Part shown: positions 27,458 through 63,743 of the stretch, in pieces
Position numbering within the stretch: the first letter of the stretch is position 1
Layout of the letters: every line of letters starts with the position of its first letter
Source: a virus
IMG/VR virus record: IMGVR_UViG_3300042566_001780
Location: 129,190-193,189 of that record
Length of the DNA: 64,000 nt
Direction: 5' to 3' (one strand)
Notes under the pieces: model-generated
Told to the model about the DNA's origin: nothing
Seen by the model: only the letters and a program-made list of their open reading frames with translations
Database searches by the model: none
Made by a program: the position numbers and the translations under genes

Positions 27458-27481
27458 GACGAAATTGTTTTGTATGCTTGA

Positions 27482-28075
27482 TTATCTATTTATATCTTTT
27501 GCCATTTCTTTAGCAAATTCTTTGAGCTCTTTTCTTCGATTGGAATAAATTTTCATTGAAAAGTGATGAATGATTGAAACTAAATCTTGAGTTAACTCAA
27601 TTTGGAAATCTTCCTCAACTGTTGCATTAATTGGTACAATCTTCACATCAAAATGCGCAAGGAAATTTTCAATATATCCATAACCAAATCTCGTCAATCT
27701 ATCCTTATATGTCACATAAATTGTATCAATCTCTTTTGCAATACATTTACTAATTAGTTTGTTAAAAGATTTTCTAGATTCATTCATGCCAGATGCAATA
27801 TCTTCAAACTCCTCGTCGATTATCACCCCGTTGGCACTGGCATATGATCTAAGTGTCTGTTTTTGCCTTATCAAATCATCTTTTTGCTTAGTTGTACTAA
27901 CTCTAGCATAAATGACTTTTTTCCTAGATTTAACTATTTCCTCTTCGAGGGGAAAATATAAAAATTTTCCAGATGGTAATTTTGAAAATTTAATGTGACC
28001 AGCCAATCTCCAGTTATGGAGAGTTTGACTACTAATCTTGTATTTTTCTTTAACCTGTTTAGCTGAAAGGTACAT
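27482..28075 (-). CDS. tnpA: IS607-type TnpA serine recombinase (N-terminal MerR-like HTH)
   Basis: N-terminal HTH; VIYARVSTTKQKDDLIRQ catalytic serine motif; 197 aa. Confidence 0.8.
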   Translation of the reverse strand: MYLSAKQVKEKYKISSQTLHNWRLAGHIKFSKLPSGKFLYFPLEEEIVKSRKKVIYARVSTTKQKDDLIRQKQTLRSYASANGVIIDEEFEDIASGMNESRKSFNKLISKCIAKEIDTIYVTYKDRLTRFGYGYIENFLAHFDVKIVPINATVEEDFQIELTQDLVSIIHHFSMKIYSNRRKELKEFAKEMAKDINR

Positions 28076-34116: not shown

Positions 34117-34710
34117 ATGGAAGACGAAAACAAGCTAAAGCAACTCGTTGAGTACATCAAAGTCACTGCGCCCATCAAGATTGTGGATGATAATACTGCT
34201 AAGGTCATGGCAGAGATCATCACCACCAATCTGGTCAATGGCATTGAGAATCTGAAACGTGTTACCGGTTCTAGTGCAAAATCCATCCAGCTGCTTAATG
34301 AAAAGTTGGACAGCTACATCCAAAAGGTGAAGTCTGAAGAGAATCAGAAAGCTATTAGGAATGTTGGGTTGAATCTTGCTCAAGCTATGGGCCTAAAGGC
34401 CGCGCAGAAACCTGTAGTTCAACCAAAACCTGTGGTGCAAGTGGCTAAACCAGTTGTGTTGAAGCCAAATAATCTCCACGTAATGGTGAAGACCCACCCT
34501 GATCCAAAAGTCAAACAACCTACTGGTTTGTACAAGGTCCAAGAACTGGTGGTTGAAGGCGATAAAGTCCAAGTGAAAATTCATGGAAACCGCGGATGGG
34601 TTCTTGATAGTCGTGGTGCCATTCCTCTGTTCCTTGATTTCTACAAAAACTATCGAACCAACAAGACAAAGATGACATCTATGTATGATGTGATTCGAAA
34701 CGCAGTCTAA
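34117..34710 (+). CDS. hypothetical protein (197 aa)
   Basis: RBS ggaa; ORF. Confidence 0.5.
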   Translation: MEDENKLKQLVEYIKVTAPIKIVDDNTAKVMAEIITTNLVNGIENLKRVTGSSAKSIQLLNEKLDSYIQKVKSEENQKAIRNVGLNLAQAMGLKAAQKPVVQPKPVVQVAKPVVLKPNNLHVMVKTHPDPKVKQPTGLYKVQELVVEGDKVQVKIHGNRGWVLDSRGAIPLFLDFYKNYRTNKTKMTSMYDVIRNAV

Positions 34711-35855: not shown

Positions 35856-35940
35856 CCATCAGATGCCAAACTGGTTATGGCACTCGACTTTTAATCGAGC
35901 GCGTTACGCTTTGTGGGTTCGAGTCCCACCTGATGGACCA
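35856..35940 (+). tRNA. tRNA-Lys(UUU)-like, 85 nt with long (13-nt) variable arm; encoded CCA
   Basis: Acceptor ccatcag/ctgatgg, D gcca/tggc, anticodon stem ctcga/tcgag loop cuUUUaa, extra arm gcg-tta-cgc, T gtggg-ttcgagt-cccac. Confidence 0.6.
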
Positions 35941-35948
35941 AAGTTTTT

Positions 35949-36024
35949 GCCTGTTTAGCTCAGTTGAGAGAGCAAAATGTTGATAACGTTTAGGTCGCTG
36001 GTTTGAGTCCAGCAACAGGCACCA
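35949..36024 (+). tRNA. tRNA-Ile(GAU)
   Basis: Acceptor gcctgtt/aacaggc, anticodon loop ttGATaa, T gctgg-tttgagt-ccagc, CCA. Confidence 0.8.
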
Positions 36025-36030
36025 AAAAAT

Positions 36031-36115
36031 GTCGCGTGTTGGCTGCTGGTAACGGCCCTCACCCTTTCAAGGTGACGTCTTTATGACTGCGGTTCGATTC
36101 CGCCACGCGACGCCA
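36031..36115 (+). tRNA. tRNA-Glu(UUC)-like, 85 nt with long variable arm; encoded CCA
   Basis: Acceptor gtcgcgt/acgcgac, anticodon stem tcacc/ggtga loop cuUUCaa, extra arm gtc-tttat-gac, T loop ttcgatt. Confidence 0.55.
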
Positions 36116-36121
36116 AGTTAT

Positions 36122-36193
36122 TGGGGGATTGTCATCTGGTGATGACATTGCGCTTTGACCGCAAGAAGGTGGGTTCGATCCCCACTCCCCTTG
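36122..36193 (+). tRNA. tRNA-Gln(UUG), no encoded CCA, U1-U72 mismatch
   Basis: D gtca/tgac, anticodon stem ttgcg/cgcaa loop cuUUGac, T gtggg-ttcgatc-cccac. Confidence 0.6.
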
Positions 36194-36203
36194 CACTTGA
36201 CAT

Positions 36204-36241
36204 AATTGTTCTCCTATAAATAGAGTATAAGGAGAACAATT
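36204..36241 (+). promoter_or_regulatory. perfect 12-bp inverted repeat enclosing TATAAATA late-promoter motif and sequestering the aggag RBS of the GIY-YIG gene
   Basis: aattgttctcct / TATAAATAgagtata / aggagaacaatt-ATG; TATAAATA at 36215..36222. Confidence 0.6.
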
Positions 36242-36910
36242 ATGCAAAAAACACAAAAGAAATATCATTATATTTATAAAACAACTTGTCTAATTACTAA
36301 AAAATTTTATATAGGCATGCACTCAACTGATAACTTAAATGATGGTTATCTTGGAAGTGGAAAGATTCTTAGTTATTCTATTGCCAAATATGGTAAGGCC
36401 AATCATGTTTGCGAAATTTTAGAATATCTACCTAATAGAGAAGCACTAAACGATCGTGAAAAAGAAATAGTAAATGAGGATTTATTAAATCATCCATTAA
36501 ATATTAATCTTGTATATGGTGGTTCTGGTGGAACTCATGGAAAAGAGGCCGAGGTATGGGCAAGACCGGGGTATAAAGAAAGAGTAGCTATTTCTTTATC
36601 TAATGCGATGAAAAAACGTTGGTTACATATAGAATATGCAAATAAAATTAGTTTGCATAGGAAAATACTTTGGACTAATGATGAATATCGAAACAATATG
36701 CTTGTTGTTTTGCGATCGGCTTTTTTGGGAAAACAACACACTGCAAAAAGCAAAGCATTAATTGGTGAAAAAAATTCAATAAGTCAATTAGGATCAAAGA
36801 ATTCCCAGTTTGGAACTTGCTGGATTACTAATGGAATAAAACCAATTAAAATAAAGAAAGAGTGTCTTGACGAATATTTGGTGAAGGGGTATCGTTTAGG
36901 AAGAAAATAA
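36242..36910 (+). CDS. GIY-YIG homing endonuclease (NUMOD3-containing)
   Basis: YHYIYKTTCLITKKFYIGMHST GIY-YIG motif; HTAKSKALIGEKN NUMOD3. Confidence 0.8.
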   Translation: MQKTQKKYHYIYKTTCLITKKFYIGMHSTDNLNDGYLGSGKILSYSIAKYGKANHVCEILEYLPNREALNDREKEIVNEDLLNHPLNINLVYGGSGGTHGKEAEVWARPGYKERVAISLSNAMKKRWLHIEYANKISLHRKILWTNDEYRNNMLVVLRSAFLGKQHTAKSKALIGEKNSISQLGSKNSQFGTCWITNGIKPIKIKKECLDEYLVKGYRLGRK

Positions 36911-36935
36911 TTTGTTCATGTTTAGTGTTATTTGC

Positions 36936-37008
36936 TGGCCGGTAGCTCAGTTGGTAGAGTGTCGGGTTGTTACCCCGGGTGTCGCGAGTTCGAATCTTGC
37001 CCGGCCAG
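36936..37008 (+). tRNA. tRNA-Asn(GUU), no encoded CCA
   Basis: Acceptor tggccgg/ccggcca, D gctc/gagt, anticodon loop ttGTTac, T gcgag-ttcgaat-cttgc. Confidence 0.7.
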
Positions 37009-37021
37009 CAAATAGCATTAT

Positions 37022-37099
37022 AGGGGAGTAGCTCAATTGGCAGAGCGCTGGTCTCCAAAACCAGAGGCTGTTCCGGTTCAAATCCGACCTCCCCTGCCA
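37022..37099 (+). tRNA. tRNA-Trp(CCA), encoded CCA
   Basis: Acceptor aggggag/ctcccct (as in bacterial tRNA-Trp), anticodon stem ctggt/accag loop cuCCAaa. Confidence 0.75.
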
Positions 37100-37154
37100 A
37101 TAATTATAACTTCGATCATCAAAATTTGGTGATGATGGAGATTTTAAAAACAAT

Positions 37155-37230
37155 CTGCACTTAGCTGTTCTGGTGAAAGCATGGCGCTGAAAACGCCGGG
37201 AGACTGGTTCGATCCCAGTAGTGCAGGCCA
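37155..37230 (+). tRNA. tRNA-Phe(GAA), encoded CCA
   Basis: Acceptor ctgcact/agtgcag, anticodon stem tggcg/cgccg loop ctGAAaa, T actgg-ttcgatc-ccagt. Confidence 0.75.
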
Positions 37231-37237
37231 AAATTAT

Positions 37238-37311
37238 GGTGTTGGTAAGATAGTGGTAGTCCGCCTGTCTGTGAAACAGGAAGCGAGGGTTCGATTCCCC
37301 CCTTCACCCCA
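37238..37311 (+). tRNA. probable tRNA-His(GUG) with G-1:C73 and atypical acceptor/T stems
   Basis: Anticodon stem cctgt/acagg loop cuGUGaa; extra 5' G pairing C73 then CCA; two U-U mismatches in acceptor stem. Confidence 0.5.
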
Positions 37312-37318
37312 AAATAAT

Positions 37319-37394
37319 GCCAATGAAGCAATCTGGTGATTGCACCTGACTGTCGATCAGGTTCAGGCGAGTTCGATCCTCGTCATTGGCGCCA
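37319..37394 (+). tRNA. tRNA-Asp(GUC), encoded CCA
   Basis: Acceptor gccaatg/cattggc, D gcaa/ttgc, anticodon loop ctGTCga, T gcgag-ttcgatc-ctcgt. Confidence 0.8.
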
Positions 37395-37399
37395 TTCAT

Positions 37400-37474
37400 G
37401 GTTCATTGGCCGAGAGGCGAGGCAACTTCTTCATGCGGAGTCCTACAGTAGTTCGAATCTACTATGAACCACCA
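37400..37474 (+). tRNA. tRNA-Met/Ile2(CAU), encoded CCA
   Basis: Acceptor ggttcat/atgaacc, anticodon stem acttc/ggagt loop ttCATgc, T agtag-ttcgaat-ctact. Confidence 0.7.
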
Positions 37475-37478
37475 AAAA

Positions 37479-37552
37479 GCCCCTGTAGTTCAATGAAAGA
37501 ACACACCTTTGGTACGGGTGAGAAGACAGTTTGATTCTGTCCTTGGGCACCA
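37479..37552 (+). tRNA. tRNA-Thr(GGU), encoded CCA, two acceptor-stem mismatches
   Basis: D gttc/gaac, anticodon stem cacct/gggtg loop ttGGTac, T gacag-tttgatt-ctgtc. Confidence 0.6.
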
Positions 37553-37601
37553 ATCTTTTGCTAAATAGATCCTATGTAGCCTTTTCGTAGGAGAAACACT
37601 C

Positions 37602-38198
37602 ATGCTAGTTAGCGAGCTTTTTGAAGCAAGAAACCCAAAATTAACCTATACCGAGAAACAAGTCAAGAAGGTCTTAGACCGGGTGACCGTTGAATTGACT
37701 GGAAATGAGAGTGGCGTTATGTCACGTTTAACTACTCGTTATTCCCGTTTAGACAAAGCTGCAAAATTAATGCAGGAAAAGCGTAATGCTCTAAACGAGG
37801 AAATGAAGCAAGTAGCAGAAAGCTTGTTTGATGCTCAAGATGAAGTGTTGACTCGTGTTGTGGATACGGTGTCATACACCATTACTTTGTCTAAAGCAGA
37901 AAAGGCAGAATCAAAATCCCCAACCAAAAAAGTTGATTATTCTGCAGTGGTAAAAGAGCTTGCTCAGATGTTGCCTGAATTACAAGAAAAGATCGACCAA
38001 ATCACTGAGCAATACACCGAAATTATTCAACCAAAAGATACCCCGGTTAAGTTAATTGTTAAGTCAAAACTTGATGAAGGATTCACCGCTTTTGCAAAAT
38101 CTTTAGTCAAGTCATTCAAAGAAATGCTGAAATCTATCAAATCTTGGGGTAAGGATTATGATAAGAGATTGGCTGCTTTGAAGAAACAGACATCATGA
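37602..38198 (+). CDS. hypothetical protein carrying the shared M-L-x-x-E-L-F-E N-terminal leader
   Basis: MLVSELFEA start; helical/charged; directly upstream of the LRR array. Confidence 0.5.
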   Translation: MLVSELFEARNPKLTYTEKQVKKVLDRVTVELTGNESGVMSRLTTRYSRLDKAAKLMQEKRNALNEEMKQVAESLFDAQDEVLTRVVDTVSYTITLSKAEKAESKSPTKKVDYSAVVKELAQMLPELQEKIDQITEQYTEIIQPKDTPVKLIVKSKLDEGFTAFAKSLVKSFKEMLKSIKSWGKDYDKRLAALKKQTS

Positions 38199-38911
38199 AA
38201 CTTAGACAATTGCTTGAAAGCCAATCTCAATTTCTTCAAACAAGAGAAGAGATTGAAGCATGGCTCCAAAAGATGAAAATTGAAAACTACACCATTAGAA
38301 ATGATCTTATGGTAGATGTTGATGGGGATGTTAACCTTTCTTTTAAAGGCTTATCATTCATTCCAGTCCAATTTTTCACAGTTATTGGAAATTTTTGGTG
38401 TTCACATAATCAATTAACATCACTCGACGGAGCACCTAGAGAAGTTGGCAGAGATTTTGAATGCGGTGAAAATGAGTTAACTTCTCTTAAGGGAGCACCT
38501 AGGGAAGTTGGTGGAGATTTTGATTGTTCTCATAATCAATTAACATCTCTTAAGGGAGCACCAAAAGATGTTGGCAAAGATTTTGATTGCAGCAATAATC
38601 AATTAACATCTCTTAAGGGTGCACCTAGAGAAGTGGGCGGAAATTTTTGGTGTTCACATAATCAATTAACATCACTCGACGGAGCACCAAGAGAGATAGG
38701 CGGTCATTTTAATTGCAGCACAAATCAATTAACATCTCTTGAAGGTGCTCCAAGAGAAGTAGGCGGAAGTTTTTATTGTAGATGGAATAAATTAACTTCC
38801 CTTGAAGGTGCACCTAGAGAAGTTGGTGGAAGTTTCAATTGTACTGGTAATGAATTGGCTTCATTAGATGGCATTGGAAATGTCACAGGTCAAATTTATT
38901 CGGATCTCTAA
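38195..38911 (+). CDS. leader-bearing BspA-type leucine-rich-repeat protein (paralog 1)
   Basis: MKLRQLLES leader; ~8 repeats NQLTSLKGAPREVGGDFDCSH. Confidence 0.65.
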   Translation: MKLRQLLESQSQFLQTREEIEAWLQKMKIENYTIRNDLMVDVDGDVNLSFKGLSFIPVQFFTVIGNFWCSHNQLTSLDGAPREVGRDFECGENELTSLKGAPREVGGDFDCSHNQLTSLKGAPKDVGKDFDCSNNQLTSLKGAPREVGGNFWCSHNQLTSLDGAPREIGGHFNCSTNQLTSLEGAPREVGGSFYCRWNKLTSLEGAPREVGGSFNCTGNELASLDGIGNVTGQIYSDL

Positions 38912-38912
38912 A

Positions 38913-39383
38913 ATGAAGCTAAAACAATTATTTGAAAATAGCAATAACCAATTTCTTCAAACCCGAGAAGAAATTGAGACATGGCTCCAAAAGATGAAAA
39001 TTAGAAACTACACCATCAGAGATGATCTGATGGTAGATGTTGATGGTAATGTAGATTTAAGTAAAAAGAATTTATCATTTATTCCAGTCAAATTTTGGGA
39101 AGTTGGTGGAGATTTTGATTGTTCTCATAATCAATTAACATCACTCAATGGTGCTCCCAGAGAAGTTGGTGGAAGTTTTTGGTGTGGCCGTAATCAATTA
39201 ACATCTCTTAAGGGAGCACCTAGAGAAGTTGGTAGAGGTTTTTTCTGCTATAACAATCAATTAACATCTATTGAAGGTGCTCCCAGAGAAGTAGGCGCGG
39301 ATTTTAACTGCAGATTTAATAAATTAACATCTCTTGATGGCATTGGTAATGTAGGTGGCCAGATTTATTCGGATCTATCATGA
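38913..39383 (+). CDS. leader-bearing LRR protein (paralog 2)
   Basis: MKLKQLFEN leader at ATG 38913; 5' ~130 nt near-identical to paralog 1; LTSL-GAPREVG repeats. Confidence 0.65.
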   Translation: MKLKQLFENSNNQFLQTREEIETWLQKMKIRNYTIRDDLMVDVDGNVDLSKKNLSFIPVKFWEVGGDFDCSHNQLTSLNGAPREVGGSFWCGRNQLTSLKGAPREVGRGFFCYNNQLTSIEGAPREVGADFNCRFNKLTSLDGIGNVGGQIYSDLS

Positions 39384-40141
39384 AATTAAGACAATTATTT
39401 GAAAATAGCAATACCCAATTTCTTCAAACTAGAGAAGAAATTTCTAATTGGTTGCTCGACAATACCATTCTCAAACCTCATGATTTCCAAATCAATGCCG
39501 ATTTAACTGTTGACGTTTTTTCTAGCTTCAAAATCTTCATGTCAGCATGGGATTATGATTTGTACCGGCTGCCAGTGCGATTTGGATATTGCACTGGCAG
39601 TTTTGCACTATCTCGTATAGCAAATCTACAAACATTAGAAGGTTGTCCAACCCATGTTGAAGGCTCTTTCTTTTGTGAAAGAACAGGCATCCAGGACCTC
39701 CAGGGTGCTCCCAGGGAAGTCGGTGGAGATTTCTTTTGTGGCTATTCAGAATCTCTAATGTCACTCGTGGGTGCTCCAGATAAGGTTGGAAGAAACTTTA
39801 AATGCAATAATTGCCCTGATTTAGAATCTCTAGAGGGCGGTCCTTCTGAAGTTGGCTATGACTACAATTGCTCTTATAATGCATTGCGATCCTTAGTCGG
39901 AGCTCCTAGAGAAATAGGTGGTGAATTTGACTGCTCAAATAATGAATTATTTTCTCTAAAGGGAGCGCCTAGGGATGTTGGTCTTTCATTTGATTGCGCA
40001 AATAATAATTTGACATCATTGAAGGGTGCTCCATTGCACATAGGCGAAGATCTTATAGCTTGGGGAAATCAAATCGCCGGTTCTGCAAATTACGGCTATA
40101 CACCCCGATCTATTGGCGGTGAAATAATCGGGGTTGAATAA
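39380..40141 (+). CDS. leader-bearing LRR protein (paralog 3)
   Basis: MKLRQLFEN leader; GAPREVGGDF / GAPDKVGRNF repeats. Confidence 0.6.
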   Translation: MKLRQLFENSNTQFLQTREEISNWLLDNTILKPHDFQINADLTVDVFSSFKIFMSAWDYDLYRLPVRFGYCTGSFALSRIANLQTLEGCPTHVEGSFFCERTGIQDLQGAPREVGGDFFCGYSESLMSLVGAPDKVGRNFKCNNCPDLESLEGGPSEVGYDYNCSYNALRSLVGAPREIGGEFDCSNNELFSLKGAPRDVGLSFDCANNNLTSLKGAPLHIGEDLIAWGNQIAGSANYGYTPRSIGGEIIGVE

Positions 40142-40911
40142 TGAAATTAGTTGACTTGTTTGAATCAGAAGATGATTTTGATTTCACTACCAAAGATGGA
40201 ATAGCAGAGTGGTTAAAAGTAAATTATATTTGGGAGTTTTATGACATTCATGATGACTTAAGTGTATCTGTTTTTGACAATGTCAATATCACAGTTCTTG
40301 GAAAAGACAAGTCAAAAATTCCAGTTAAGTTTAGAAAAGTATACGCATTTTTAACTGACGTACCAATTACCTCTCTTGAAAATTTTCCAGATTCAGCAAG
40401 AGAAATTATTATTCAAAGTGCAAAAATAAAGAATTTGCAAGGAATCACCCAAGATACCTTTGCATATTCAATACAAGCATGTAAAGAGTTGGAATCTTTA
40501 GATGGATTGCCGCAAGAAGTTAATGGAAGCATTTACATTAACAGATGCCCAATTACTTCCTTAAAGGGATCACCATTAAGAATCGACGGAGATTTTTCTG
40601 TTGTTCGGTGTGGTTTAAAGTCGTTGAGATATGGCCCAAGAGAAGTCACTGGATTACTCGATATACGAAAAAATGAACTAACTTCACTAAAAGGATGTCC
40701 TGAAGGTGTTGATTACATAGATGCCACATCTAATTTGATCACTAATTTGATTGGTGTTCCGGAATCAGCAGATGAACTCTATTTAACAGATAATCCTTTA
40801 GAATCTTTAGAAGGATTGCATGATGGTCGTATTGTTGTTAGATCTATAGGTGCTAATATTTCAAAAGACGAAAAATTGAAATACCCAAATGCCACAATTG
40901 TGACTGAATGA
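40141..40911 (+). CDS. leader-bearing LRR protein (paralog 4, diverged)
   Basis: MKLVDLFES leader; LESLDGLPQEV / ITSLKGSPLRI repeats. Confidence 0.6.
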   Translation: MKLVDLFESEDDFDFTTKDGIAEWLKVNYIWEFYDIHDDLSVSVFDNVNITVLGKDKSKIPVKFRKVYAFLTDVPITSLENFPDSAREIIIQSAKIKNLQGITQDTFAYSIQACKELESLDGLPQEVNGSIYINRCPITSLKGSPLRIDGDFSVVRCGLKSLRYGPREVTGLLDIRKNELTSLKGCPEGVDYIDATSNLITNLIGVPESADELYLTDNPLESLEGLHDGRIVVRSIGANISKDEKLKYPNATIVTE

Positions 40912-40926
40912 AACTGGAGAAAAGTT

Positions 40927-42426
40927 ATGAAATTGAAAGAACTATTAGAATCATATGATGAATTTGACTTTTCTACCAAAGAAGGTATTTCTAATTGGCT
41001 AAAAGAAAAAGGCAACAGAATTGGCAATTACACTATACACGATGATTTGAGTGTATCATTCCATAGCACTGTTTATTGGCATTGGCTGGATGGGATTACT
41101 AAATTACCATTCAAAATTCGCGATGTTAATGGCACCTTTGAGCTCAATGACGTTCCATTAACTACCCTGGAAAATTTTCCAGATAACGCTAATACAATCC
41201 ATCTTGAAAGTCTTGATATTGAAGACTTGACAGGAATTACCCAAACAGCAGAACGATATATTATCAAACACTGCCCTAATTTGAAAAGTCTAGATGGATT
41301 GCCGCCTCATGTAGAAGGCCTAGACCAATGGGCTGGAGTGTTTATTCATAATTCTGGAGTTGAAAGTTTAAGCGGAAGTCCAAGCACAATAAACGGCGAT
41401 TTTGTTGTAATTCGATGCAAATTGAAGTCACTCAAATACGGTCCCAGAGAAGTAACTGGTGAATATGACGTTGAATATAACCAGTTAGAATCGCTGAAAC
41501 ACAGCCCAAGAGCAGCAAGCCAACTATTAGTCGGATATAACAAAATAACATCTCTTAAGGGATGCACACCTGGTATTACTGTATTGAATATTGAGGGAAA
41601 TCCAATATCTTCACTAGATGGATTGCCGGAATCTCTACATAATGATGGTATCGTGTATGCCGAGAGGACAAATATCAGTGATGAAGAAATAGCAAAATAC
41701 CCAAATGGATTCTTCATCAAAGATCATGGAATGTTTGTTGCTGAAGGATGGAAAGAAAAAGCGCAAGTTGCGGGCGCAGCGGCATTAATGGCTACTGCTC
41801 TATTGGTGAATCGCGGACCAGAGGAAGCCCCAAGTGATAGGGCAATTGCAGGAAAAATTGATCATTCTAACATTTCTGTAGAAAAACCAAAATTGAATAA
41901 CAAATCGTCTGTCTTTAGTGGTTCAGCTAAAGTTCTTTATGATGAAGCGAAGAAGCAGGGTATACGCGGGGCAGAATTGATTCAATTGATTGCGCAATCT
42001 GCACATGAGACTGCAAATTTTGGTAAGCTTATTGAGATGGGTAGTAAGGATTATTTCAAGAAATATGATCCCAAACATAACCCAAGGAAAGCCGAAATAC
42101 TTGGAAATACTAAGGTTGGAGATGGTGAAAAATTTAAAGGTCGCGGTTTTCTCCAATTAACGGGTCGTGATGTTTATATGCGAGCTGGAAAAGCTTTAGG
42201 ATTGCCACTAGAAGAGAAACCGGAATTGTTAGAAGATCCAAAGATTGGTGCTAAAGCGTCAATTTGGTTCTGGAAAACCAGGGTTCAGCCAAAGGTCAAA
42301 GATTTCTCTGACGTTGAAGAAGTCACCCAATACATTAACCCGGGATTAAAGGGGTTATCTGATCGACAAAAGAAATTTCGAGAATTTTCTAATCTCTATA
42401 ATCTAGAAACAAAAAAGTCAAAATGA
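40927..42426 (+). CDS. leader + LRR N-domain fused to TM segment and GH19/lysozyme-like (COG3179-type) domain
   Basis: MKLKELLES leader; TM AQVAGAAALMATALLV; C-terminal AQSAHETANF ... EKFKGRGFLQLTGRDVY matches the GH19 signature [FHY]GRGxxQL(T/S). Confidence 0.7.
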   Translation: MKLKELLESYDEFDFSTKEGISNWLKEKGNRIGNYTIHDDLSVSFHSTVYWHWLDGITKLPFKIRDVNGTFELNDVPLTTLENFPDNANTIHLESLDIEDLTGITQTAERYIIKHCPNLKSLDGLPPHVEGLDQWAGVFIHNSGVESLSGSPSTINGDFVVIRCKLKSLKYGPREVTGEYDVEYNQLESLKHSPRAASQLLVGYNKITSLKGCTPGITVLNIEGNPISSLDGLPESLHNDGIVYAERTNISDEEIAKYPNGFFIKDHGMFVAEGWKEKAQVAGAAALMATALLVNRGPEEAPSDRAIAGKIDHSNISVEKPKLNNKSSVFSGSAKVLYDEAKKQGIRGAELIQLIAQSAHETANFGKLIEMGSKDYFKKYDPKHNPRKAEILGNTKVGDGEKFKGRGFLQLTGRDVYMRAGKALGLPLEEKPELLEDPKIGAKASIWFWKTRVQPKVKDFSDVEEVTQYINPGLKGLSDRQKKFREFSNLYNLETKKSK

Positions 42427-42432
42427 GTTAGA

Positions 42433-43107
42433 ATGAATAGAGTTTTTGTGAAGGTTCTATTCAACATGTCAGATCAATTGATTTCTTTGGAATTAACTGC
42501 GCAACAGTTTTATCATTCAAAGTTCAACACATATCACAATTGGGAGCATATTTCTTATGTGCTTTCCCAATATAGAGCAATCTTCAAAAAAGATCCAAGC
42601 AAGACAGAATTTGCAGCCATTCTGTTTCACGATTGCATCTATGTACCAGGTTCTCCTCATGGAGTCAATGAAATGCTGAGTGCGATAACTGCATGTAAAG
42701 TTGTCAAGTTCTCAAACTTCAAAGACATTGATGTAGAGTTGTTAGAGAAAATTATTCTGGCTACGAAGGTCCAAAATTATTTAGATCCTGGATTCTATGA
42801 TGAAGATTGCAATCGCGTGCTGGATGCAGATGTCGCGTCGCTAGCTGCACCGTATGAAGATTTTTTGCAAAACAATGCAAATATCATTTTTGAGAATCAT
42901 GGGCCCGTTCGATTTGGGTATGAAATGGATATTTGCAGTTATGCTTCTGTTGAATTTCTGTTGAAACTTAGTTCAAGATTATACATTTACAGAACTCAAG
43001 AAGCGCGAGAATTACTTGAGGAAAAAGCACGCGACAATATTGACAGGTTTAAACGAAATCCAAGAGACATCAATAGCTATTTGATTAAGTCTTCAGATTT
43101 TTGCTAA
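42433..43107 (+). CDS. HD-domain phosphohydrolase
   Basis: HNWEH ... ILFHDCIY (H..HD) motifs. Confidence 0.55.
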   Translation: MNRVFVKVLFNMSDQLISLELTAQQFYHSKFNTYHNWEHISYVLSQYRAIFKKDPSKTEFAAILFHDCIYVPGSPHGVNEMLSAITACKVVKFSNFKDIDVELLEKIILATKVQNYLDPGFYDEDCNRVLDADVASLAAPYEDFLQNNANIIFENHGPVRFGYEMDICSYASVEFLLKLSSRLYIYRTQEARELLEEKARDNIDRFKRNPRDINSYLIKSSDFC

Positions 43108-43110
43108 TTT

Positions 43111-43434
43111 CTAGCAATCTTCTCCATTTGGTATGTTTTGATCATGCCACTCCCCTTCAATGCAATGCCTGATTTCGTGCAGAAGGCATCTAGGGTAATT
43201 TCGCAAATTAATTATGCAAATTTTTTGTTGATTGACATCTATTAATCTAGCGGATCCTTGAATTTGGGGATTATTGAATCTACTAGGATCGGAATGAATA
43301 ATTAGCCTGAAATCGGAATGAACGATTTCGGGTTTTTTACTGGCACTGAATTGCGAATGACCAGTGCCCGCGCATGCAGTCAGAAGCACAATGAATAGAA
43401 CAGATATGAAATAATTCATAGGTGGGAATAGCAT
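43111..43434 (-). CDS. small lipoprotein with HExxH motif
   Basis: Lipobox VLLTAC; CLLHEIRHC. Confidence 0.45.
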   Translation of the reverse strand: MLFPPMNYFISVLFIVLLTACAGTGHSQFSASKKPEIVHSDFRLIIHSDPSRFNNPQIQGSARLIDVNQQKICIINLRNYPRCLLHEIRHCIEGEWHDQNIPNGEDC

Positions 43435-49552: not shown

Positions 49553-51367
49553 ATGGCAGATTTAAACACTTGTCCAAATGGGGCTGGATCAATTAACAAT
49601 CCAGCAAATGCATTACCTGAAATTCCGGCATATGTAGTACCTGAAATTCCAGATGTCAACTATTCAGTCACTGACTGTTTAGTTGACTCAAATATACAAG
49701 AGCAAATTGCAGTTGAGGCTCTCAATATCAGCGGAGCTCCGCTCAACATATTCAAGCTCCTAGGTGTTCATGAACAGGGCAAACTAATTGACTTAACAGG
49801 AAATGGTACTCCGCTTAATGGAAGTGATAATGTTTTTGATTCACTCGCATCTAATTGGGCATCTTCTCAAGTGGGAATGGCTGTGTTGACAACCCCATCA
49901 TGGGTAGGATATGATTTTGGTGTTATAAAAACGAGTTATGGATTGGACGCAAATGGACCTGGTATTGCAAACAATCAGCATATTACATCATTGAGAATTA
50001 CTCAACCTGCTCAAAATAGACGGGCTCTTCAAATTAAAGTTGAACAATCTGATGGGCAATATTCATTATCCAGCCTAATCATTACTGGTTCTGGTACTGC
50101 TACTATTACTGACTTCACCGCTGGGCCCAAATGCAAACCTGGTATATTTTCATTAGTAGCTGATGCAACTAATTCATTTACGGTTTTCTTTATTTCAGGT
50201 ACCACTGAATTAGTCGGCATCTTAAAGCCTAATCTTAGATTCAATTCAAATTACGGATCATTCACGTTAACATCAAATTCCACTTTTGCCAATGGCGACA
50301 TCATCACTGCATCAATTCAATTGAAGTGGAATCGTGTTGATATTGTTAATTTAGTAGATGACGCTACAGCGCAGAATGTTCGCATTAAACAATCTAAGCC
50401 ATCTCGCTATTGGAGAATAGTGCCTACATCATTTAGTGGTGTTGCTTTAAATGAGCCCTGGGAAATATCAAAGCTTGAGCTTTTTGATTATCAAACCACA
50501 CGGCTTGATGATATTCAGGATCCACTATTACTTGAGAATCGCGACCGTGATTATGCATCTCAATCAGTTCAATTAAAGGTTGCCTATCAACCAACTGATA
50601 CTATATCTGATCTATCCAAATTTGGATTTCAGATGACAGATAGTTTCACATTTACCGCAAGCTTTGCCCAAATGGTGAAATTACTTGGAAGGCCTATCGT
50701 AGTCGGTGACGTTTTAGAGCTTCCAAGTGAAATGCAATATGACCAAAATCTGAAACCGGTTAGAAAGTTCTTAGAAGTATCAGATACATCATGGGCGGCT
50801 GATGGGTATACGACTGCCTGGAAACCGATTATGTATCGATTCCAAGCATCTCAGTTAATTCCATCTCAGGAACATCGCGACATTCTTGGCACCGTTGACA
50901 CTCAGAAATTCCTTGTTGATGACGGTACTTTCCTTGATGGTATTGAACAAATTCAAACTGCTCCATTAACGATTTCGCAACAAGTAAAAACTGAAGCCTT
51001 ACAAGAAGTACCAGAAAAAGGTACGAACGTAACTGAAATTGCATCTGGTACTAGTCGATACGGTGAACCTGGTACTTATGATGGACGTGATCTTTATGTT
51101 GAAGATGGGTTACCACCAGATGGGTTACCATATACCGAAGGCTTCAAACTCCCAGATGTAACTGATGCTTCTGATGGAGATTATTTCAGATTAAACTATG
51201 ATCCAAAGATGAATATTGCTTCACGTCTTTACAAGTTTAGCTCAGTTAAAAATAAGTGGATTTATGTTGAAACTGATAGACGTCCTATTAATACTTCACA
51301 CAAGCCTTCACAATTACAAGTCATGCAACAACCTAAAGTCGTTTCCTTAGAAAGCAAAAACCTATGA
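49553..51367 (+). CDS. virion structural protein (604 aa)
   Basis: Tightly packed with neighbours in structural block. Confidence 0.5.
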   Translation: MADLNTCPNGAGSINNPANALPEIPAYVVPEIPDVNYSVTDCLVDSNIQEQIAVEALNISGAPLNIFKLLGVHEQGKLIDLTGNGTPLNGSDNVFDSLASNWASSQVGMAVLTTPSWVGYDFGVIKTSYGLDANGPGIANNQHITSLRITQPAQNRRALQIKVEQSDGQYSLSSLIITGSGTATITDFTAGPKCKPGIFSLVADATNSFTVFFISGTTELVGILKPNLRFNSNYGSFTLTSNSTFANGDIITASIQLKWNRVDIVNLVDDATAQNVRIKQSKPSRYWRIVPTSFSGVALNEPWEISKLELFDYQTTRLDDIQDPLLLENRDRDYASQSVQLKVAYQPTDTISDLSKFGFQMTDSFTFTASFAQMVKLLGRPIVVGDVLELPSEMQYDQNLKPVRKFLEVSDTSWAADGYTTAWKPIMYRFQASQLIPSQEHRDILGTVDTQKFLVDDGTFLDGIEQIQTAPLTISQQVKTEALQEVPEKGTNVTEIASGTSRYGEPGTYDGRDLYVEDGLPPDGLPYTEGFKLPDVTDASDGDYFRLNYDPKMNIASRLYKFSSVKNKWIYVETDRRPINTSHKPSQLQVMQQPKVVSLESKNL

Positions 51368-52104
51368 GACTAAAAGAATTATTCGAAGACATTCATGTCA
51401 TAAAGGATATCTGGACTAAGGAAGAAGCAGATGATCGAGTAGCCAATACTGCATTTCGGCTTGAAGATAAATGGAAAAAATATCCATCAAAAATAAAGTT
51501 TCCAGTCGAAAACTTTGAAGTAGTTCAAGTTAGAAATGCTGGCATCATTATTGACTGGGAAATAGGTTTGCGTAACAAACTGAACGGGCAATTTGCTGCT
51601 ATCTTGAATGCAGACCAGACCTCTATCAAAGTTGGCAAAAAGAAAATAGTTGGTAAAGCTACATCTGTTGCTTCAGTGAATGGCAATTATCTTGGTCAAG
51701 GACTAATGCAAAAGCTCTACCAATACTTGTCTGATAATGGAGAAATTCTATTCTCGTCAACAGACCAGTCTTTTGGTGGTAAAAAGCTATGGCAAAAATT
51801 TGTTCAGGAAAACAACGAAAACACCTTCTTAGTGTTAGAACTGTTTGAGCATAGCTTTTCATTTGTTCAATCAAAAAATAGTTTTGGCAGATTAAGAAAT
51901 GCTGAAGGAGTGTCACCACTTGAATTCTATGAAAAGAATAAGAGTAAAAATGGTGTAGCTCTCATCATCAAAGCTGATTATGACAAACTAATCAAACTTG
52001 CATATTTGAAGTCTTCGGGTAGTTTCAATCCAAGCTATTTTATGACACTGCCAAAAGGCCATCCCCTCATTAGCGAATTCAATTCAATAGCTTTCAGACC
52101 ATGA
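51364..52104 (+). CDS. hypothetical protein with M-R-L-K-E-L-F-E leader
   Basis: MRLKELFED start matches the leader family although body is unrelated. Confidence 0.5.
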   Translation: MRLKELFEDIHVIKDIWTKEEADDRVANTAFRLEDKWKKYPSKIKFPVENFEVVQVRNAGIIIDWEIGLRNKLNGQFAAILNADQTSIKVGKKKIVGKATSVASVNGNYLGQGLMQKLYQYLSDNGEILFSSTDQSFGGKKLWQKFVQENNENTFLVLELFEHSFSFVQSKNSFGRLRNAEGVSPLEFYEKNKSKNGVALIIKADYDKLIKLAYLKSSGSFNPSYFMTLPKGHPLISEFNSIAFRP

Positions 52105-53045
52105 TTACAAACTATCATTACTCTGCGCAATTAAAATCATATTTGCGCCAAATTGCTCTTATATTCAATGGTCTCCAAGTAAAAACTGGAGTTGGTGAAT
52201 GCGGTGAAGAGGAATTTATTTCTGTTCCATGCGTTATTGGTAGCAAAGATCGAGTAGTCGCTGCGTTAATGTCTGGAAATACGAAGAACCGAGTATTCTC
52301 ACTACCAACTATGTCTCTGTTTCTTCAAAACTTGGCCATGGCGCCAGAAAGAAGAAAAGTACAGGCAATGGTAGATCAACGTGTCACAATGAAAACAGGT
52401 GGCGTATTTCCTGACGACTTGACTGTCGTCAAACGCGCGATGCCCGTACCATTCAATATGACAGTTGAACTGACAATCTATACTTCTAACAATGATCAGA
52501 TGTATCAGATATTGGAGCAAATATTAGTTCTATTCAATCCAGATGTTCAATTTCAAAAATCAGATGCGCCATTTGACTGGACAAAACTAACAAAAATTGA
52601 ACTTATTGATATTGCTAATGAAGAAAATTATCCTGCAGCTACAGATAGAAGAATCATAAATTGGACTCTTACTTTTGAGGTGCCTATCTATATGAGCGTG
52701 CCAATGGGTGTCAAGGACGATTTAGTAAGAAAAGTCACTATTCAACTTTCTGCCAATTCAAATATGACTCCAATTAATGAGGTTGATGAAGATGGTAATT
52801 TAACTCCCTTTGGAACACCGATTGCTATCATGGAATATGATACTCGGCCATTCCCGACTATAACTGAGCAAGATTGTACGTTTACTTCAACTTCTGTGCC
52901 AGAAAATCCGCAAGTTAATGATACTTGGTGGAGACCTGCTCTAAATAAAGCATTTAGGTGGAACGGTGCTTCATGGGTAGATTTTGAACAATACCTTCCT
53001 CCACAGAGAACTAATGTTGATCCTTTTGAGCCAAAACCACTATGA
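52101..53045 (+). CDS. structural protein (314 aa)
   Basis: ATGA coupling. Confidence 0.45.
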   Translation: MITNYHYSAQLKSYLRQIALIFNGLQVKTGVGECGEEEFISVPCVIGSKDRVVAALMSGNTKNRVFSLPTMSLFLQNLAMAPERRKVQAMVDQRVTMKTGGVFPDDLTVVKRAMPVPFNMTVELTIYTSNNDQMYQILEQILVLFNPDVQFQKSDAPFDWTKLTKIELIDIANEENYPAATDRRIINWTLTFEVPIYMSVPMGVKDDLVRKVTIQLSANSNMTPINEVDEDGNLTPFGTPIAIMEYDTRPFPTITEQDCTFTSTSVPENPQVNDTWWRPALNKAFRWNGASWVDFEQYLPPQRTNVDPFEPKPL

Positions 53046-56569: not shown

Positions 56570-56595
56570 AAAGGGCTCCTAGGAGCCCTTTTTCA
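56570..56595. terminator. bidirectional terminator aagggctc-ctag-gagccctt
   Basis: Hairpin flanked by A-run and T-run, between convergent sheath (+) and HNH (-) genes. Confidence 0.6.
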
Positions 56596-61016: not shown

Positions 61017-61475
61017 ATGCAAACACGATTTATTAATCCATTAGATGAATTATTCGAAATAGACCCTAGTTGCAGAAAAATAGAAGATACTACTGATCGT
61101 GATGATACTGATTATGAAGTAGCTGAAGTCCAAAGTCAACCTGTTGAAGTAGTCAAAGATGAAGAAGATATTGACACTGATCAAAAAATAGATGCAGTAT
61201 ATGATGCAGCGCTCGAAGCTTACCAAAATCAAACTGCTATGGTTGAATTGCTTGAGCCACGATATGCTGCACGTAATGCAGAGGTGGCAGCTACTTATTT
61301 GAATATTGCTTTACAGGCAGTTACTTCAAAAGCTCGTGTAAAGAATGATAGAAAACGGGTTGGACAGTTTATCCCGGGGGCATCCAATAAAATCACGAAT
61401 AATACTATTGTTGCATCCCGGGAAGAAATTCTTAGAATGATTTCAGTTGATGCTGAGACTAAGAAATTATCTTAG
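61017..61475 (+). CDS. acidic hypothetical protein
   Basis: ATG 3 nt after upstream stop. Confidence 0.45.
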   Translation: MQTRFINPLDELFEIDPSCRKIEDTTDRDDTDYEVAEVQSQPVEVVKDEEDIDTDQKIDAVYDAALEAYQNQTAMVELLEPRYAARNAEVAATYLNIALQAVTSKARVKNDRKRVGQFIPGASNKITNNTIVASREEILRMISVDAETKKLS

Positions 61476-62653
61476 TAAGTTAGATTAATGTAACCTTCTA
61501 CATCAATTCCATTATTTTCTAATTCTGCTTTTATTTCTGCAGCGCTCTTACCAGCAACTGAGGAATCAAATGGATTTGAGGTTATCAAAACATTCCCGCC
61601 GATGTAAGAGGCAATGCCTGCAAGATTCTTCAACTTATTATTTCTTGCTGAGAAAGAAGCGCCAACATGTTTTGGGGAACCTTTAAGCGACGTTAATTGA
61701 TTGTTGTCGCTGTTGAATTGTCTCCCAACAAATCTCGGTCCACCCTCAAGATTTTCTAATTTGTTGTTTTGACAACTGAAGTCTGAACCAACATCCTTCA
61801 CACATCCTGCTAAGCTCGTTAGTTTATTTCCACTTAAATCTACAGAACCGCCAACTTCTCTAGGCATTTTTCCAAGTGACATTAGTTTGCAATTCATAGC
61901 TGCATAGTTTGCTCCTACGTACTGTGGGGCAAATTCTAAGGTCTTAAGATTATTTCTTGAGCAATTGAATGAACCTTCAACATGATAAGGACAACCTTCT
62001 AAAGAATCCAAGAATAGATTGCCTTGAATTCTAAAAGATCCACCTATTTTGCCAAATCTGACCGGAATTTTCTTAAGTTTCTTGAATGATAGATCGACGT
62101 CACTAGATACGTCAACAGTCAAATCGTCATTAACAGTGTAGTTGCTAATTTTGTACTTTTTCAATCGCGCAACAACTTCTTCCTTCGAATTAGGAAAATC
62201 ATTATCATTTTCTGGCGTATACACCTTTGTGACTAACTTGCCTAATTGTTTGAAAGCAGCATCGTAGATATTGACCAAAATGTCAACTGGAGCGTCGCCC
62301 ACAATAGAAGGCTTTGGACTCTTCATCTTGTATGGAGTATCAGATGAAGTACCACGAATTTGACCATTTGCGTAGACAATATAGAAGTCTTTCCATGGAC
62401 CTAGCCCAAAACCGGGTTTTGCAAAGTAAAAAGATCCTCTAACAGCAGCTAGAGGACCTGTCTTATCATAAGCAGAAATGGCTTTGTATGAATCTAAGTC
62501 TTTTGCTTTTTCAATAGCAGCTTTAACGTCAGCTTTTGAAGCACCTATATTCTTGAGCCAAACATTGGTTTTTCCTCGTAGATGCTTTGCTTTATCATCA
62601 TACCGAATGAATTGCTCTAGATCTTTATTTTCAAATAATTGTGCCAACTTCAT
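61472..62653 (-). CDS. leader-bearing LRR protein (paralog 6, minus strand)
   Basis: MKLAQLFEN leader; internal NYTVNDDLTVDVSSDVDLSFKKLKKIPVRF module and LTSLKGSPKHVG repeats as in 38195 family. Confidence 0.6.
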   Translation of the reverse strand: MKLAQLFENKDLEQFIRYDDKAKHLRGKTNVWLKNIGASKADVKAAIEKAKDLDSYKAISAYDKTGPLAAVRGSFYFAKPGFGLGPWKDFYIVYANGQIRGTSSDTPYKMKSPKPSIVGDAPVDILVNIYDAAFKQLGKLVTKVYTPENDNDFPNSKEEVVARLKKYKISNYTVNDDLTVDVSSDVDLSFKKLKKIPVRFGKIGGSFRIQGNLFLDSLEGCPYHVEGSFNCSRNNLKTLEFAPQYVGANYAAMNCKLMSLGKMPREVGGSVDLSGNKLTSLAGCVKDVGSDFSCQNNKLENLEGGPRFVGRQFNSDNNQLTSLKGSPKHVGASFSARNNKLKNLAGIASYIGGNVLITSNPFDSSVAGKSAAEIKAELENNGIDVEGYINLTY

Positions 62654-62680
62654 AGATTTTCCTTTTGAATTTGAATCTAT

Positions 62681-63283
62681 TTAGACGACTTCTTCAAAAT
62701 TCTCGGCAATTTGTTTGATATACGAATGCGCTCTAGAGTTTGGTGGAATAAAGTTGCCCAAATACTCCGCTTGCACTGGAAGAATCTTACGCGTCTTCAA
62801 AATCAATGCTTCTGCTCTATTTGGGATATATGGAGCATATAGCAATTGCATACCGGCTTCTTCAAGAAACAAAGAATCCTTCTTGTTGTTATCATACTTG
62901 CACGCAGTTACCACGTTCATCCAGGTATCTTTTCCACCACGAGACACGGGAATAATATGATCGCGAGACAACTTGTAAGACGGGAATGAATGGCCACAAT
63001 AAGCGCAAGTATAGTTGTCCCGAGCAAACAACTCTTTATTTGTCAGCAATGGGATTTTGTTGCGCTTATATGCATGCGATTCACCACGAATAGCAATAAT
63101 CGGGGCTGTCTCAATTTTAGATTGAAGACCACTGATTCGGTTAAGACCACCACGAAAACGAACAAAGTCGGGCTCGCCGAGTTGCCATGCCACCAAGTCT
63201 TTAGCATGGTAGACAATAGCATCTTCATAAGTGCCCCAGTGCAATGGATTACCTTGTTGGTCTAGAATCAAAATCGTGTTCAT
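62681..63283 (-). CDS. HNH endonuclease
   Basis: CAYCGHSF...LSRDHIIPVSRGGKDTWMNVVTACKYDNNKK HNH/Zn motif. Confidence 0.7.
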   Translation of the reverse strand: MNTILILDQQGNPLHWGTYEDAIVYHAKDLVAWQLGEPDFVRFRGGLNRISGLQSKIETAPIIAIRGESHAYKRNKIPLLTNKELFARDNYTCAYCGHSFPSYKLSRDHIIPVSRGGKDTWMNVVTACKYDNNKKDSLFLEEAGMQLLYAPYIPNRAEALILKTRKILPVQAEYLGNFIPPNSRAHSYIKQIAENFEEVV

Positions 63284-63284: not shown

Positions 63285-63743
63285 TCATTCTTCCTTAGTT
63301 TTGAGCAAATCTTCTAATTGTTTAACATATTTTTGATGATCTCTTCGACCATCTTTTAAAAACTCTTCACAACTCATCCAAACAGTGTATTCTGTTTCAG
63401 AACACCATTTATCAAAATTCCATCTATCAATTATCCTAGCAGCATATACAGTCAAGTCATATGTGCCAGATCGCAAGACTACTCTTTCATGTGCCAGTAA
63501 AAACGGTGTCTCTGCAAGATTATATGCTACTAACCCAAGTTCTTCCTCAGCTTCTCTAACAGCGCACCCAAAAGCATCTTCATCTTCTTCAATTTTACCT
63601 TTGCTAAGCATAGGGCGAGGACCACCCAACTTTGGGTTAGAACTCACCATCATCAGATACTTGTAAGATCCATCTTCATCCTTCAGATAAGGAATTAACC
63701 CTGCTCTAGCACGCTTCTCATACTGTAATTCATCATGTTCCAT
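63285..63743 (-). CDS. Nudix hydrolase
   Basis: Nudix box GKIEEDEDAFGCAVREAEEELGL. Confidence 0.65.
   Translation of the reverse strand: MEHDELQYEKRARAGLIPYLKDEDGSYKYLMMVSSNPKLGGPRPMLSKGKIEEDEDAFGCAVREAEEELGLVAYNLAETPFLLAHERVVLRSGTYDLTVYAARIIDRWNFDKWCSETEYTVWMSCEEFLKDGRRDHQKYVKQLEDLLKTKEE

Follow-up and report, generated by a model that had tools for sequence, protein, structure and literature searches.

An N-terminal octapeptide on eight proteins of a jumbo myovirus is probably a form of the T4 capsid targeting sequence

A 64,000-nucleotide stretch of viral DNA (IMG/VR record IMGVR_UViG_3300042566_001780, positions 129,190 to 193,189; hereafter the window, numbered from its own first letter) encodes eight proteins that start with almost the same eight residues, M-[KR]-L-x-[QED]-L-[LF]-E. 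The window is part of a ~292-kb jumbo myovirus of the T4 superfamily, and the octapeptide is, with a probability of roughly 0.78, the form that the T4 capsid targeting sequence (CTS) takes in this lineage. A reading made from the sequence alone had likened the octapeptide to the T4 capsid-targeting and prohead-protease propeptide, and this proposal is supported by a late-promoter motif, by the CTSs of homologous proteins, by the predicted lack of structure in the leader, by its L-[FL]-E ending, and by the virion proteome of a relative, Agrobacterium phage Atu_ph07, which includes all 20 of the tagged proteins. T4 is the precedent for such a mechanism; what appears to be new is this variant of the octapeptide, together with its distribution in a jumbo-phage clade and the types of cargo.

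All eight open reading frames (ORFs) of the sequence-only reading exist, with the N-termini that it gave. Leader protein 1 (37602..38198, + strand, 198 aa) carries MLVSELFE in front of a 190-aa helical body with a mature isoelectric point of 9.4, and its gene is the first of an operon and has an AGGAG Shine-Dalgarno sequence. It is followed on the same strand by a series of leucine-rich repeat (LRR) proteins, namely leader protein 2 (38195..38911, 238 aa, MKLRQLLE, a ~50-aa N-domain and LRRs, with an ATGA start that overlaps the upstream stop), leader protein 3 (38913..39383, 156 aa, MKLKQLFE), leader protein 4 (39380..40141, 253 aa, MKLRQLFE), leader protein 5 (40141..40911, 256 aa, MKLVDLFE), and leader protein 6 (40927..42426, 499 aa, MKLKELLE), in which the LRRs precede a hydrophobic helix, a linker and a GH19 domain. 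The start of leader protein 3, a Met inside the mechanical ORF 38868..39383, was chosen by paralogue alignment; this alignment and the distance of only 1 nt from the preceding stop codon make it the likely true start. Leader protein 7 (51364..52104, + strand, 246 aa, MRLKELFE) has a probably GNAT-like body, and its gene sits inside the structural block, as had been noted, between two neck/tail genes, one gp14-like (49553) and the other gp15-like (52101). Leader protein 8 (61472..62653, - strand, 393 aa, MKLAQLFE) is again an LRR protein; the gene stands as previously described but the position does not, 61472 being the stop end and 62653 the start.

The eight starts give the consensus M-[KRL]-[LV]-x-[QED]-L-[LF]-E, where L-[FL]-E closes the leader in every protein and the next residue is A, S, N or D. 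Seven starts match M[KR][LV]x[QED]L[LF]E, with MLVSELFE as a variant, against 9.6e-5 expected from composition for the 75 window genes. The heptapeptide without its Met has no internal occurrence in the 75 window proteins, where 0.03 are expected. As a background control, 769 kb of sequence surrounding gp21 at 87 other phage loci gave no leader match among 1169 ORF starts; these loci were taken from profile scans of GTDB genomes (7 loci) and JGI metagenomes (80 loci). Each of the two Leu positions uses four codons (CTA, CTT, TTA and TTG) while the peptide is fixed, so that conservation acts on the peptide and not on the DNA.

The bodies behind the leader were said to differ, and this holds for three independent types but not for all eight proteins. 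An all-versus-all BLASTP comparison revealed that the six LRR proteins (38195, 38913, 39380, 40141, 40927, and 62653) are paralogues (E 1e-13 to 1e-71), which also share a ~50-residue domain behind the leader (…QFLQTREEIExWL…DVDGxVxL), whereas the 198-aa helical protein (37602) and the 246-aa protein (51364) match neither each other nor the LRR set. The LRR assignment follows from tandem LxxLxLxxN-type repeats that form a solenoid, as seen with Pfam, in the AlphaFold2 model and with Foldseek; the 38195 protein matches Pfam LRR_4 (E = 8.6e-8) and its repeats of ~21-22 residues read GAPREVGGxFxCSxNQLTSL. Relatives of the 40141 LRR body are found in a few large phages (Vibrio SRILMA, Lak phages), and the match there omits the N-terminus. 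A further LRR gene, of which the C-terminal part was seen, and a 222-aa ORF (MKLLEILLF) lie just past window position 64000 (L008 1-830), which brings the number of LRR family members in the genome to at least seven. The helical 37602 protein has no significant Pfam or PHROG match.

The largest protein of the operon, 40927, comprises LRRs at residues ~11-265, a hydrophobic helix (AQVAGAAALMATALLV) at ~280-295, a linker, and a GH19 domain at ~345-490. The C-terminal domain is, by profile match, a GH19 muramidase/chitinase (Pfam Glyco_hydro_19 PF00182, E = 1.4e-10; score 41.8 bits, cut-off 25.5). In its AlphaFold2 model residues 1-10 have a pLDDT of 41, the LRR solenoid (11-265) is above 90, and the long helix and linker (268-330) are low. 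The LRR domain is modelled as a regular β-strand solenoid and is structurally closest, in a Foldseek search, to the LRR domains of IpaH/SspH effectors (target template modelling (TM) score 0.5-0.63, root mean squared deviation 3.8-6 Å, 18-23% identity). The 51364 protein has no Pfam match; a profile search of 1.84 billion representative proteins yielded 62 distant homologues, in which the motif YxGxGL..LY..L..G..LFSS.DQ..GG..W is conserved. Nothing significant was found when these distant homologues were compared with PHROG, or in a tblastn search of phages with P0183. The AlphaFold2 model of 51364, built from a 25-sequence alignment, has a pLDDT of 87 and a pTM of 0.85, with residues 1-11 below 50 (~41). 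Nearly all of the 50 listed PDB matches of this model are GNAT-type acyl- or acetyltransferases, although the matches are weak (E ~3e-4 at best, TM score 0.25-0.4); together with the conserved Y-R/L-G-x-G-L…Y motif they make a GNAT-like enzyme probable, not proven. The low pLDDT of residues 1-10 or 1-11 on two unrelated folds suggests that the leader is a free N-terminal appendage.

Comparison with T4 indicates that this appendage is equivalent to the CTS. The T4 N-termini (NC_000866) read MKTYQEFIAE in internal proteins (IPs) II and III, with FIAE at residues 7-10, MKTFKEFTSTTTPVSTITE (MKTFKEF...ITE) in IPI, and MELITELFDE in Alt, and gp24, gp22, and gp21 start with MAKINELLRE, MLKEQLIAE and MNEPQLLIE, respectively. 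The N-terminal 10 residues of IPIII are enough for packaging, and processing is governed by residues 8 and 10 (PMC9026906). Cleavage by gp21 is C-terminal to Glu, in Alt at ITE-6 and LTE-619, and gp21 itself carries LIE-9 (PMC9026906, PMC5694885); only the CTS is common to the T-even internal proteins (PMC3012670, PMC12373910). The L-F-E or L-L-E ending fits the gp21 rule, as had been suggested, given that P3 is Leu or Ile and P1 is Glu at the T4 sites ITE-6, LTE-619 and LIE-9. The homologues of 51364 carry, column for column with MRLKELFE, the N-termini MITFKQFIAE, MKTFKQFLAE, MKTTFKQFLE, MITFKQFLE, and MKPTFRQFIE, with others starting MRLKDLLE or MRYNELNE. Homologues of the LRR proteins start with MKTFKEFLKE (P0017), MKLNEIKLLHE, MKLKHLLE or MKNIKRYSQLFE, and the leader is absent altogether in two of them. 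Window-type and T4-type tags thus interchange within single families.

The same tags were found in cultured relatives. In Ralstonia phage RsoM2USA, the slot between the gp14-like and gp15-like genes, which in the window holds 51364, is occupied by three paralogues (MTFKAFLQE, MTTFKEYLTE, and MKLEDLFE) with bodies unrelated to 51364. Further starts in this phage are MQTFKQFLSE in ORF385, beside the major capsid protein (MCP) gene, MKFKDLYE in ORF357, and MKLREITE and MKLQEIAE in ORF334 and ORF336, respectively. In their arrangement these genes resemble the internal-protein loci of T-even phages, which are polymorphic. An assignment of the RsoM2USA 'YRG' family as an Alt-like ADP-ribosyltransferase was unsupported, with no Pfam match for ORF403-405, 385 or 346. 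The three slot paralogues have homologues in Atu_ph07, where a tandem array, gp54-gp62, starts with MRWEQLNE, MRWEQLTE, MKWEQLTE, MKWQQLTE, MRWHQLNE, MRWDQLTE, MKWHQLTE, and MRWHQLIE and is followed by gp63 with MRLFQLLE. In both phages some annotated starts lie 4-11 codons upstream of the leader Met (RsoM2USA ORF403 and ORF405, L012 24359 and 26135; ORF334, L001 39523; Atu_ph07 gp407, L022 755), and the position of the leader suggests that the true starts of these four genes are the internal Mets.

The virion proteome of Atu_ph07 was the one proteome available with which the octapeptide could be compared. All six frames of the 490-kb genome were scanned with the pattern ^M[KR][LWYVIF]x[QEDHN][LI]xE, and matches occurred only at or near ORF starts. 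Twenty annotated matches at nine loci were obtained (gp43, 53-63, 381, 407, 408, 482, 487, 548, 561, and 672). Of the 714 Atu_ph07 proteins, 140 were detected in virions by electrospray-ionization tandem mass spectrometry (Attai et al. 2018, Table S5; PMC6102473), and all 20 tagged proteins are on this list (Fisher p = 2e-15), mostly with 3-31 unique peptides and in two cases with 2. The association persists for the ten proteins found after the pattern had been fixed (p = 6e-8) and when the set is counted as nine loci (p = 3.5e-7). Molecular weights that agree to about 0.01 kDa confirmed that the gene numbers correspond. In this proteome the octapeptide therefore predicted virion proteins perfectly. 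An unannotated 92-aa ORF starting MRLFDLFE (NC_042013 about 315251-315526; L022 12251-12526, - strand) falls outside the published mass-spectrometry database. The description of the tagged proteins as a previously unannotated family holds in part: no description of the shared leader turned up in the literature searched on Rak2-like, Atu_ph07-like, and XacN1-like phages, but the tagged proteins of Atu_ph07 had already been reported from virions. Attai et al. 2018 called them 'virion-associated hypothetical proteins' and did not mention a common leader (PMC6102473).

A protease of the appropriate family is present in RsoM2USA, XacN1, and Atu_ph07. The head module of RsoM2USA is T4-like (portal, gp21 homologue, scaffold-like protein and MCP), and its gp21 homologue, encoded between the portal and MCP genes, is 40% identical to T4 gp21. 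With this protein as the query, 117 of 117 full-length homologues start with a 5-9-residue segment ending L-x-E (LIE 52, LQE 20, LVE 18, LTE 13; e.g. MKSQLLIE and MTQLVLIE), and L7 and E9 are invariant in the alignment (A5). The prohead protease of the RsoM2USA clade, having a cargo-like L-x-E start, may itself be targeted and trimmed like cargo. Leader-like N-termini are also found on capsid proteins; the MCP starts with MLYTELNE…IMLAE|T in XacN1 and with MSKLFE|S in Atu_ph07 and has …MIAE|T in RsoM2USA, and the scaffold-like ORF275 of XacN1 starts with MKELLE.

The position of the leader genes in the window is consistent with expression alongside the virion genes. The window encodes a T4-type gp13-like adaptor (47633), a gp14-like protein, a gp15-like sheath stabilizer, sheath and tube (58418). 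The sheath is 55.6% identical to that of RsoM2USA, with XacN1, Xoo-sp13, PA5oct, and Rak2-like phages next, and an identical copy of the 499-aa protein is recorded on a 291,687-bp contig, of which JGI sample 3300059473 has a 196,671-bp version. Two segments of the window had no megablast match among 50,697 phage records, and IMG/VR gave none with an exact 40-mer or with the 51364-family profile. The motif CTAAATAG has eight copies in the window against 1.9 expected, a number that none of 100 shuffles reached; all are sense-oriented and six lie 24-41 nt upstream of gene starts. One copy (37561..37568, + strand) precedes the first leader gene, 37602, by 41 nt, and another (62677..62684, - strand) is upstream of the minus-strand LRR gene 62653. 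On the + strand, copies at 16256, 44959, 47607, and 58381 precede the fibre-like gene 16292, the virion structural gene 44994, the gp13 gene 47633, and the tube gene 58418, respectively. A tandem pair (63895 and 63906, - strand) lies ~150 nt upstream of a NUDIX gene (63285-63743, - strand) that is not obviously structural, and the sheath gene has CTAAATAC. In Aeh1, a T4-like phage, late promoters are reported to have the consensus CTAAATA (PMC1524935). As judged from these sites, the motif suggests late expression of both leader loci together with the structural genes. The genes from 37602 to 43107 are tightly packed, with stop and start codons that often overlap, and the first terminator-like hairpin on the + strand is at 43304-43334, which fits a single late operon; σ70-type promoters inside this operon are at chance level.

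The last gene of this group encodes an HD-type phosphohydrolase (42433..43107, + strand; PHROG phosphohydrolase, E = 3.6e-17) that has no leader. Its place after the GH19 gene is conserved in related contigs (L002, L009, and L010). It appears to be co-transcribed with the leader genes and is probably not cargo. Directly upstream of the operon is a cluster of eleven tRNA genes (35856-37552, + strand) interrupted by a GIY-YIG-like ORF (36242-36910). T4 has the same neighbourhood, with a tRNA cluster and segB beside ipI, and with ipII and ipIII beside the e lysozyme gene and nudE; ipI and the window leader genes thus both lie beside a tRNA cluster that holds a GIY-YIG endonuclease gene.

By analogy with T4, whose CTS the tag resembles, the tagged window proteins are probably loaded into the phage head. 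The proposed mechanism is as follows. The proteins would be made late, from CTAAATAG promoters, and their exposed N-terminal tag would attach them, during prohead assembly, to the scaffolding core. A protease of the gp21 family would then cut after Glu8, with Leu at P3 and Glu at P1. The mature proteins would stay in the head with the DNA and would probably be delivered to the host at infection, where they may act as effectors. The predicted cargo of the window comprises five LRR proteins, the LRR-GH19 wall hydrolase, the basic helical protein, and the GNAT-like enzyme.

Several points weigh against the assignment of the octapeptide as a CTS. This phage is known from genes alone, and a mature N-terminus at residue 9 is a prediction for its relatives as well. 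Its own prohead protease and capsid genes lie beyond the window, so that the presence of a protease rests on relatives: no head gene or gp21 protease is among the genes of the 64-kb window, none of the best 120 of 1357 homologues of RsoM2USA gp21 is on the 291,687-bp contig, and none of the loci from the GTDB and JGI profile scans is from this phage. The 87 other gp21-containing loci have no such leaders near their head genes. Within the window, six of the eight tagged proteins are paralogues whose common N-terminus could be simple inheritance alone, and in the 51364 family conservation runs on beyond Glu8 (E-D-I-x-V), which blurs the boundary between tag and body. The virion-associated GH19 'chitinase' of XacN1, considered as a possible leader-bearing protein, was rejected, as it starts with MGAVTAQ. 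With regard to Atu_ph07, the scan pattern was partly designed on gp54-63, the virion list gives nothing on N-termini and makes no distinction between head and tail, and the preparation was purified with polyethylene glycol and includes a few likely contaminants (ribonucleotide reductase, single-stranded-DNA-binding protein, and a RecA-like protein, with 1-3 peptides), so that detection is not proof of encapsidation.

The silence of the Atu_ph07 list on location and processing leaves room for a tag that serves virion assembly without being cleaved, or for proteins placed outside the head interior, in the neck, tail, or baseplate, with neither gp21 processing nor ejection. In T4, Asp at CTS position 10 permits targeting without cleavage (PMC9026906), and both 51364 and its RsoM2USA counterparts are encoded among neck and tail genes. 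We consider this improbable, since every leader ends in L-x-E, the type of site cut by T4 gp21, the protease family has an N-terminal L-x-E of its own, T4-type CTSs occur at the homologous position, and the tag is missing from the window's genuine neck and tail proteins (gp13-, gp14-, and gp15-like proteins, sheath and tube). The kinship of the LRR proteins raises another explanation, in which the shared N-terminus is only a relic, left by duplication and recombination between paralogues, and does not target the proteins. LRR paralogues do make up six of the eight proteins, with a similarity that extends ~50 residues beyond the leader, and tandem arrays dominate the Atu_ph07 set too. A relic would hardly account, however, for a tag that is found on helical, LRR, and GNAT-like folds and at no fewer than nine distinct loci and bodies in Atu_ph07, that is confined to position 1, that keeps its peptide despite free synonymous change, that is interchangeable with a T4-type CTS inside one family, and whose 20 carriers in Atu_ph07 are all in the virion proteome; this explanation is very unlikely.

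For the 499-aa protein only, a role as an endolysin of the signal-anchor-release type, exported through its internal weakly hydrophobic helix and not carried as cargo, is a real alternative, if an unlikely one. Its GH19 domain is most like those of phage endolysins (PHROG 181, E = 2.9e-33), ahead of the catalytic domain lies a hydrophobic segment, rich in Ala and Gly, that is conserved, and the GH19 protein of XacN1 is leaderless. On the other hand, the protein shares the leader, the LRR N-domain, and the late operon of its neighbours, its orthologues (P0007, P0011-P0015; 35-57% identical) retain a leader ending L-x-E, GH19 domains are known from within virion proteins as well (PHROG 3201 'tail fiber protein'; PhiEaH1), and a membrane-active segment would equally fit an ejected wall-penetration protein. 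There remains the idea that the conserved start acts in the RNA, as an A/T-rich unstructured initiation region or in translational coupling, or that it is a secretion signal, to which we attach next to no credence. Five of the eight starts do overlap or abut the upstream stop codon without a Shine-Dalgarno sequence, and the leader codons are A/T-rich, but the choice of Leu codon varies freely while the peptide is fixed, and the same peptide recurs in Atu_ph07, RsoM2USA, and homologues from metagenomes, where the nucleotide sequences differ. As for secretion, a charged segment of 8 residues with no hydrophobic core is unlike a Sec or Tat signal. A T4-type CTS is the reading preferred here.

The closest known system, the CTS of T4 IPI, IPII, IPIII, and Alt, is likewise a short N-terminal tag ending [L/I]-x-E on otherwise unrelated, dispensable late proteins. 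Alt (MELITELFDE) resembles the window start MRLKELFE and, as with Alt, one of the window cargo proteins is probably an enzyme. The T4 tag has 10-19 residues, in contrast to the 8 of M-K/R-L-x-Q/E-L-F/L-E. T4 cargo consists of small basic IPs and an ADP-ribosyltransferase, whereas the predicted window cargo, here known from genes alone, has a size of 17-55 kDa, which is large, and belongs to new types (LRR arrays, LRR-GH19, and GNAT-like). The phage itself, a ~292-kb jumbo, is distant from T4, with a sheath less than 60% identical even to that of its nearest cultured relative. The phiKZ-like giant phages likewise load many proteins into the head; their proteases, phiKZ gp175 and SPN3US gp245, are related to gp21 and cut after Glu, and paralogous cargo proteins share identical N-termini (PMC5694885). 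Their cleavage motif is S/A/G-x-E or A-x-E with longer propeptides, whereas the window proteins have a fixed octapeptide and Leu at P3 as in T4, and the phage belongs to the gp13/gp15/gp18 T4-like lineage (RsoM2USA, XacN1, Atu_ph07, and Rak2-like phages), not to the phiKZ group. The Atu_ph07 proteins have the same type of octapeptide at residue 1 (MRWEQLTE, MKWHQLTE, MRLIDLLE, and MRLFQLLE), in tandem arrays and at scattered loci. They differ from the window proteins in that position 3 is often Trp and P2 often Thr, and in that their bodies are mostly of the 'YRG' family, found also in RsoM2USA ORF403-405 and absent from the window. With regard to the LRR domain of 40927, those of IpaH (Shigella) and SspH1/2 (Salmonella) similarly have ~20-22-residue repeats and are target-recognition modules of injected proteins, but 40927 has no NEL E3-ligase domain and no sequence-level family membership, and its delivery would be by phage ejection as opposed to type-III secretion; the likeness is one of fold and logic, not a demonstrated homology.

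Three further ORFs of the window may encode tagged proteins with offset leaders, and none of their products has a family match. The product of 34117..34710 (+ strand), a weak possible ninth member, starts MEDENKLKQLVE..., with the leader core shifted by four residues; that of 61017..61475 (+ strand), also weak, starts MQTRFINPLDELFE...; and the fibre-like gene 16292-17377 (+ strand) encodes a weaker leader-like N-terminus, MSGSPFLDQLQE. An Amidoligase_2-family protein of 525 aa (53042-54619, + strand), encoded between the gp15-like and sheath genes in a placement conserved in related contigs, starts with MKLSEAKM and is leader-like for five residues only.

Other genes noticed in the window include an adenylosuccinate-synthetase homologue (8741-10066, + strand; PF00709, E = 6.7e-39); phage PurA/PurZ-like genes can indicate 2-aminoadenine (Z) DNA. 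A pair of NAD salvage genes encodes a cytidylyltransferase-like/NUDIX protein (4891-6015, + strand; NadR-like) and a nicotinamide phosphoribosyltransferase (10157-11548, + strand). A lone tRNA gene with a CUA anticodon, labelled Pyl by ARAGORN, lies far from the main cluster (12727-12803, + strand) and is a potential amber suppressor. A 2280-aa ORF follows the tail-fibre-like genes (18904-25746, + strand); it has an ILEI-domain match only and no PHROG match, and a comparable region of RsoM2USA encodes a structural protein of 2541 aa. Mobile elements are located at 26204-28075 (-), 56579-57445 (-), 60199-61014 (+), and 62681-63283 (-) and comprise a serine-recombinase-type transposase with an adjacent 417-aa ORF and three HNH/homing-endonuclease-like genes within the tail block. 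A TnpB gene is located just past the window end, and several assemblies break ~3.8 kb beyond, at the TnpB/LRR region.

If the tag works as in T4, proteins that are carried in the head and probably injected could be listed for jumbo phages from sequence alone, a class otherwise accessible only by proteomics. Among the head-carried proteins of T4 are inhibitors of host restriction systems and an enzyme that modifies the host. A role would also be provided for about 20 'hypothetical virion proteins' of Atu_ph07 and several of RsoM2USA, and the cargo would include unexpected types, namely effector-like LRR arrays, a GH19 hydrolase with a membrane-type helix, and a probable acetyltransferase. The 8-residue tag could, moreover, serve to package foreign proteins in the capsids of jumbo phages, a use to which the T4 CTS is already put. 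A wider proposal, which we put forward tentatively and regard as somewhat doubtful, is that the octapeptide is a portable packaging code across a T4-superfamily jumbo clade, loading tens of large proteins that are injected as an effector arsenal. If so, the clade would include this phage, RsoM2USA, Atu_ph07, and many metagenomic relatives, with enzymes and IpaH/SspH-like LRR modules as cargo, and the arsenal, aimed at host defence or physiology, would be a phage counterpart of a secretion-system repertoire that can be read from the genome by its tag.

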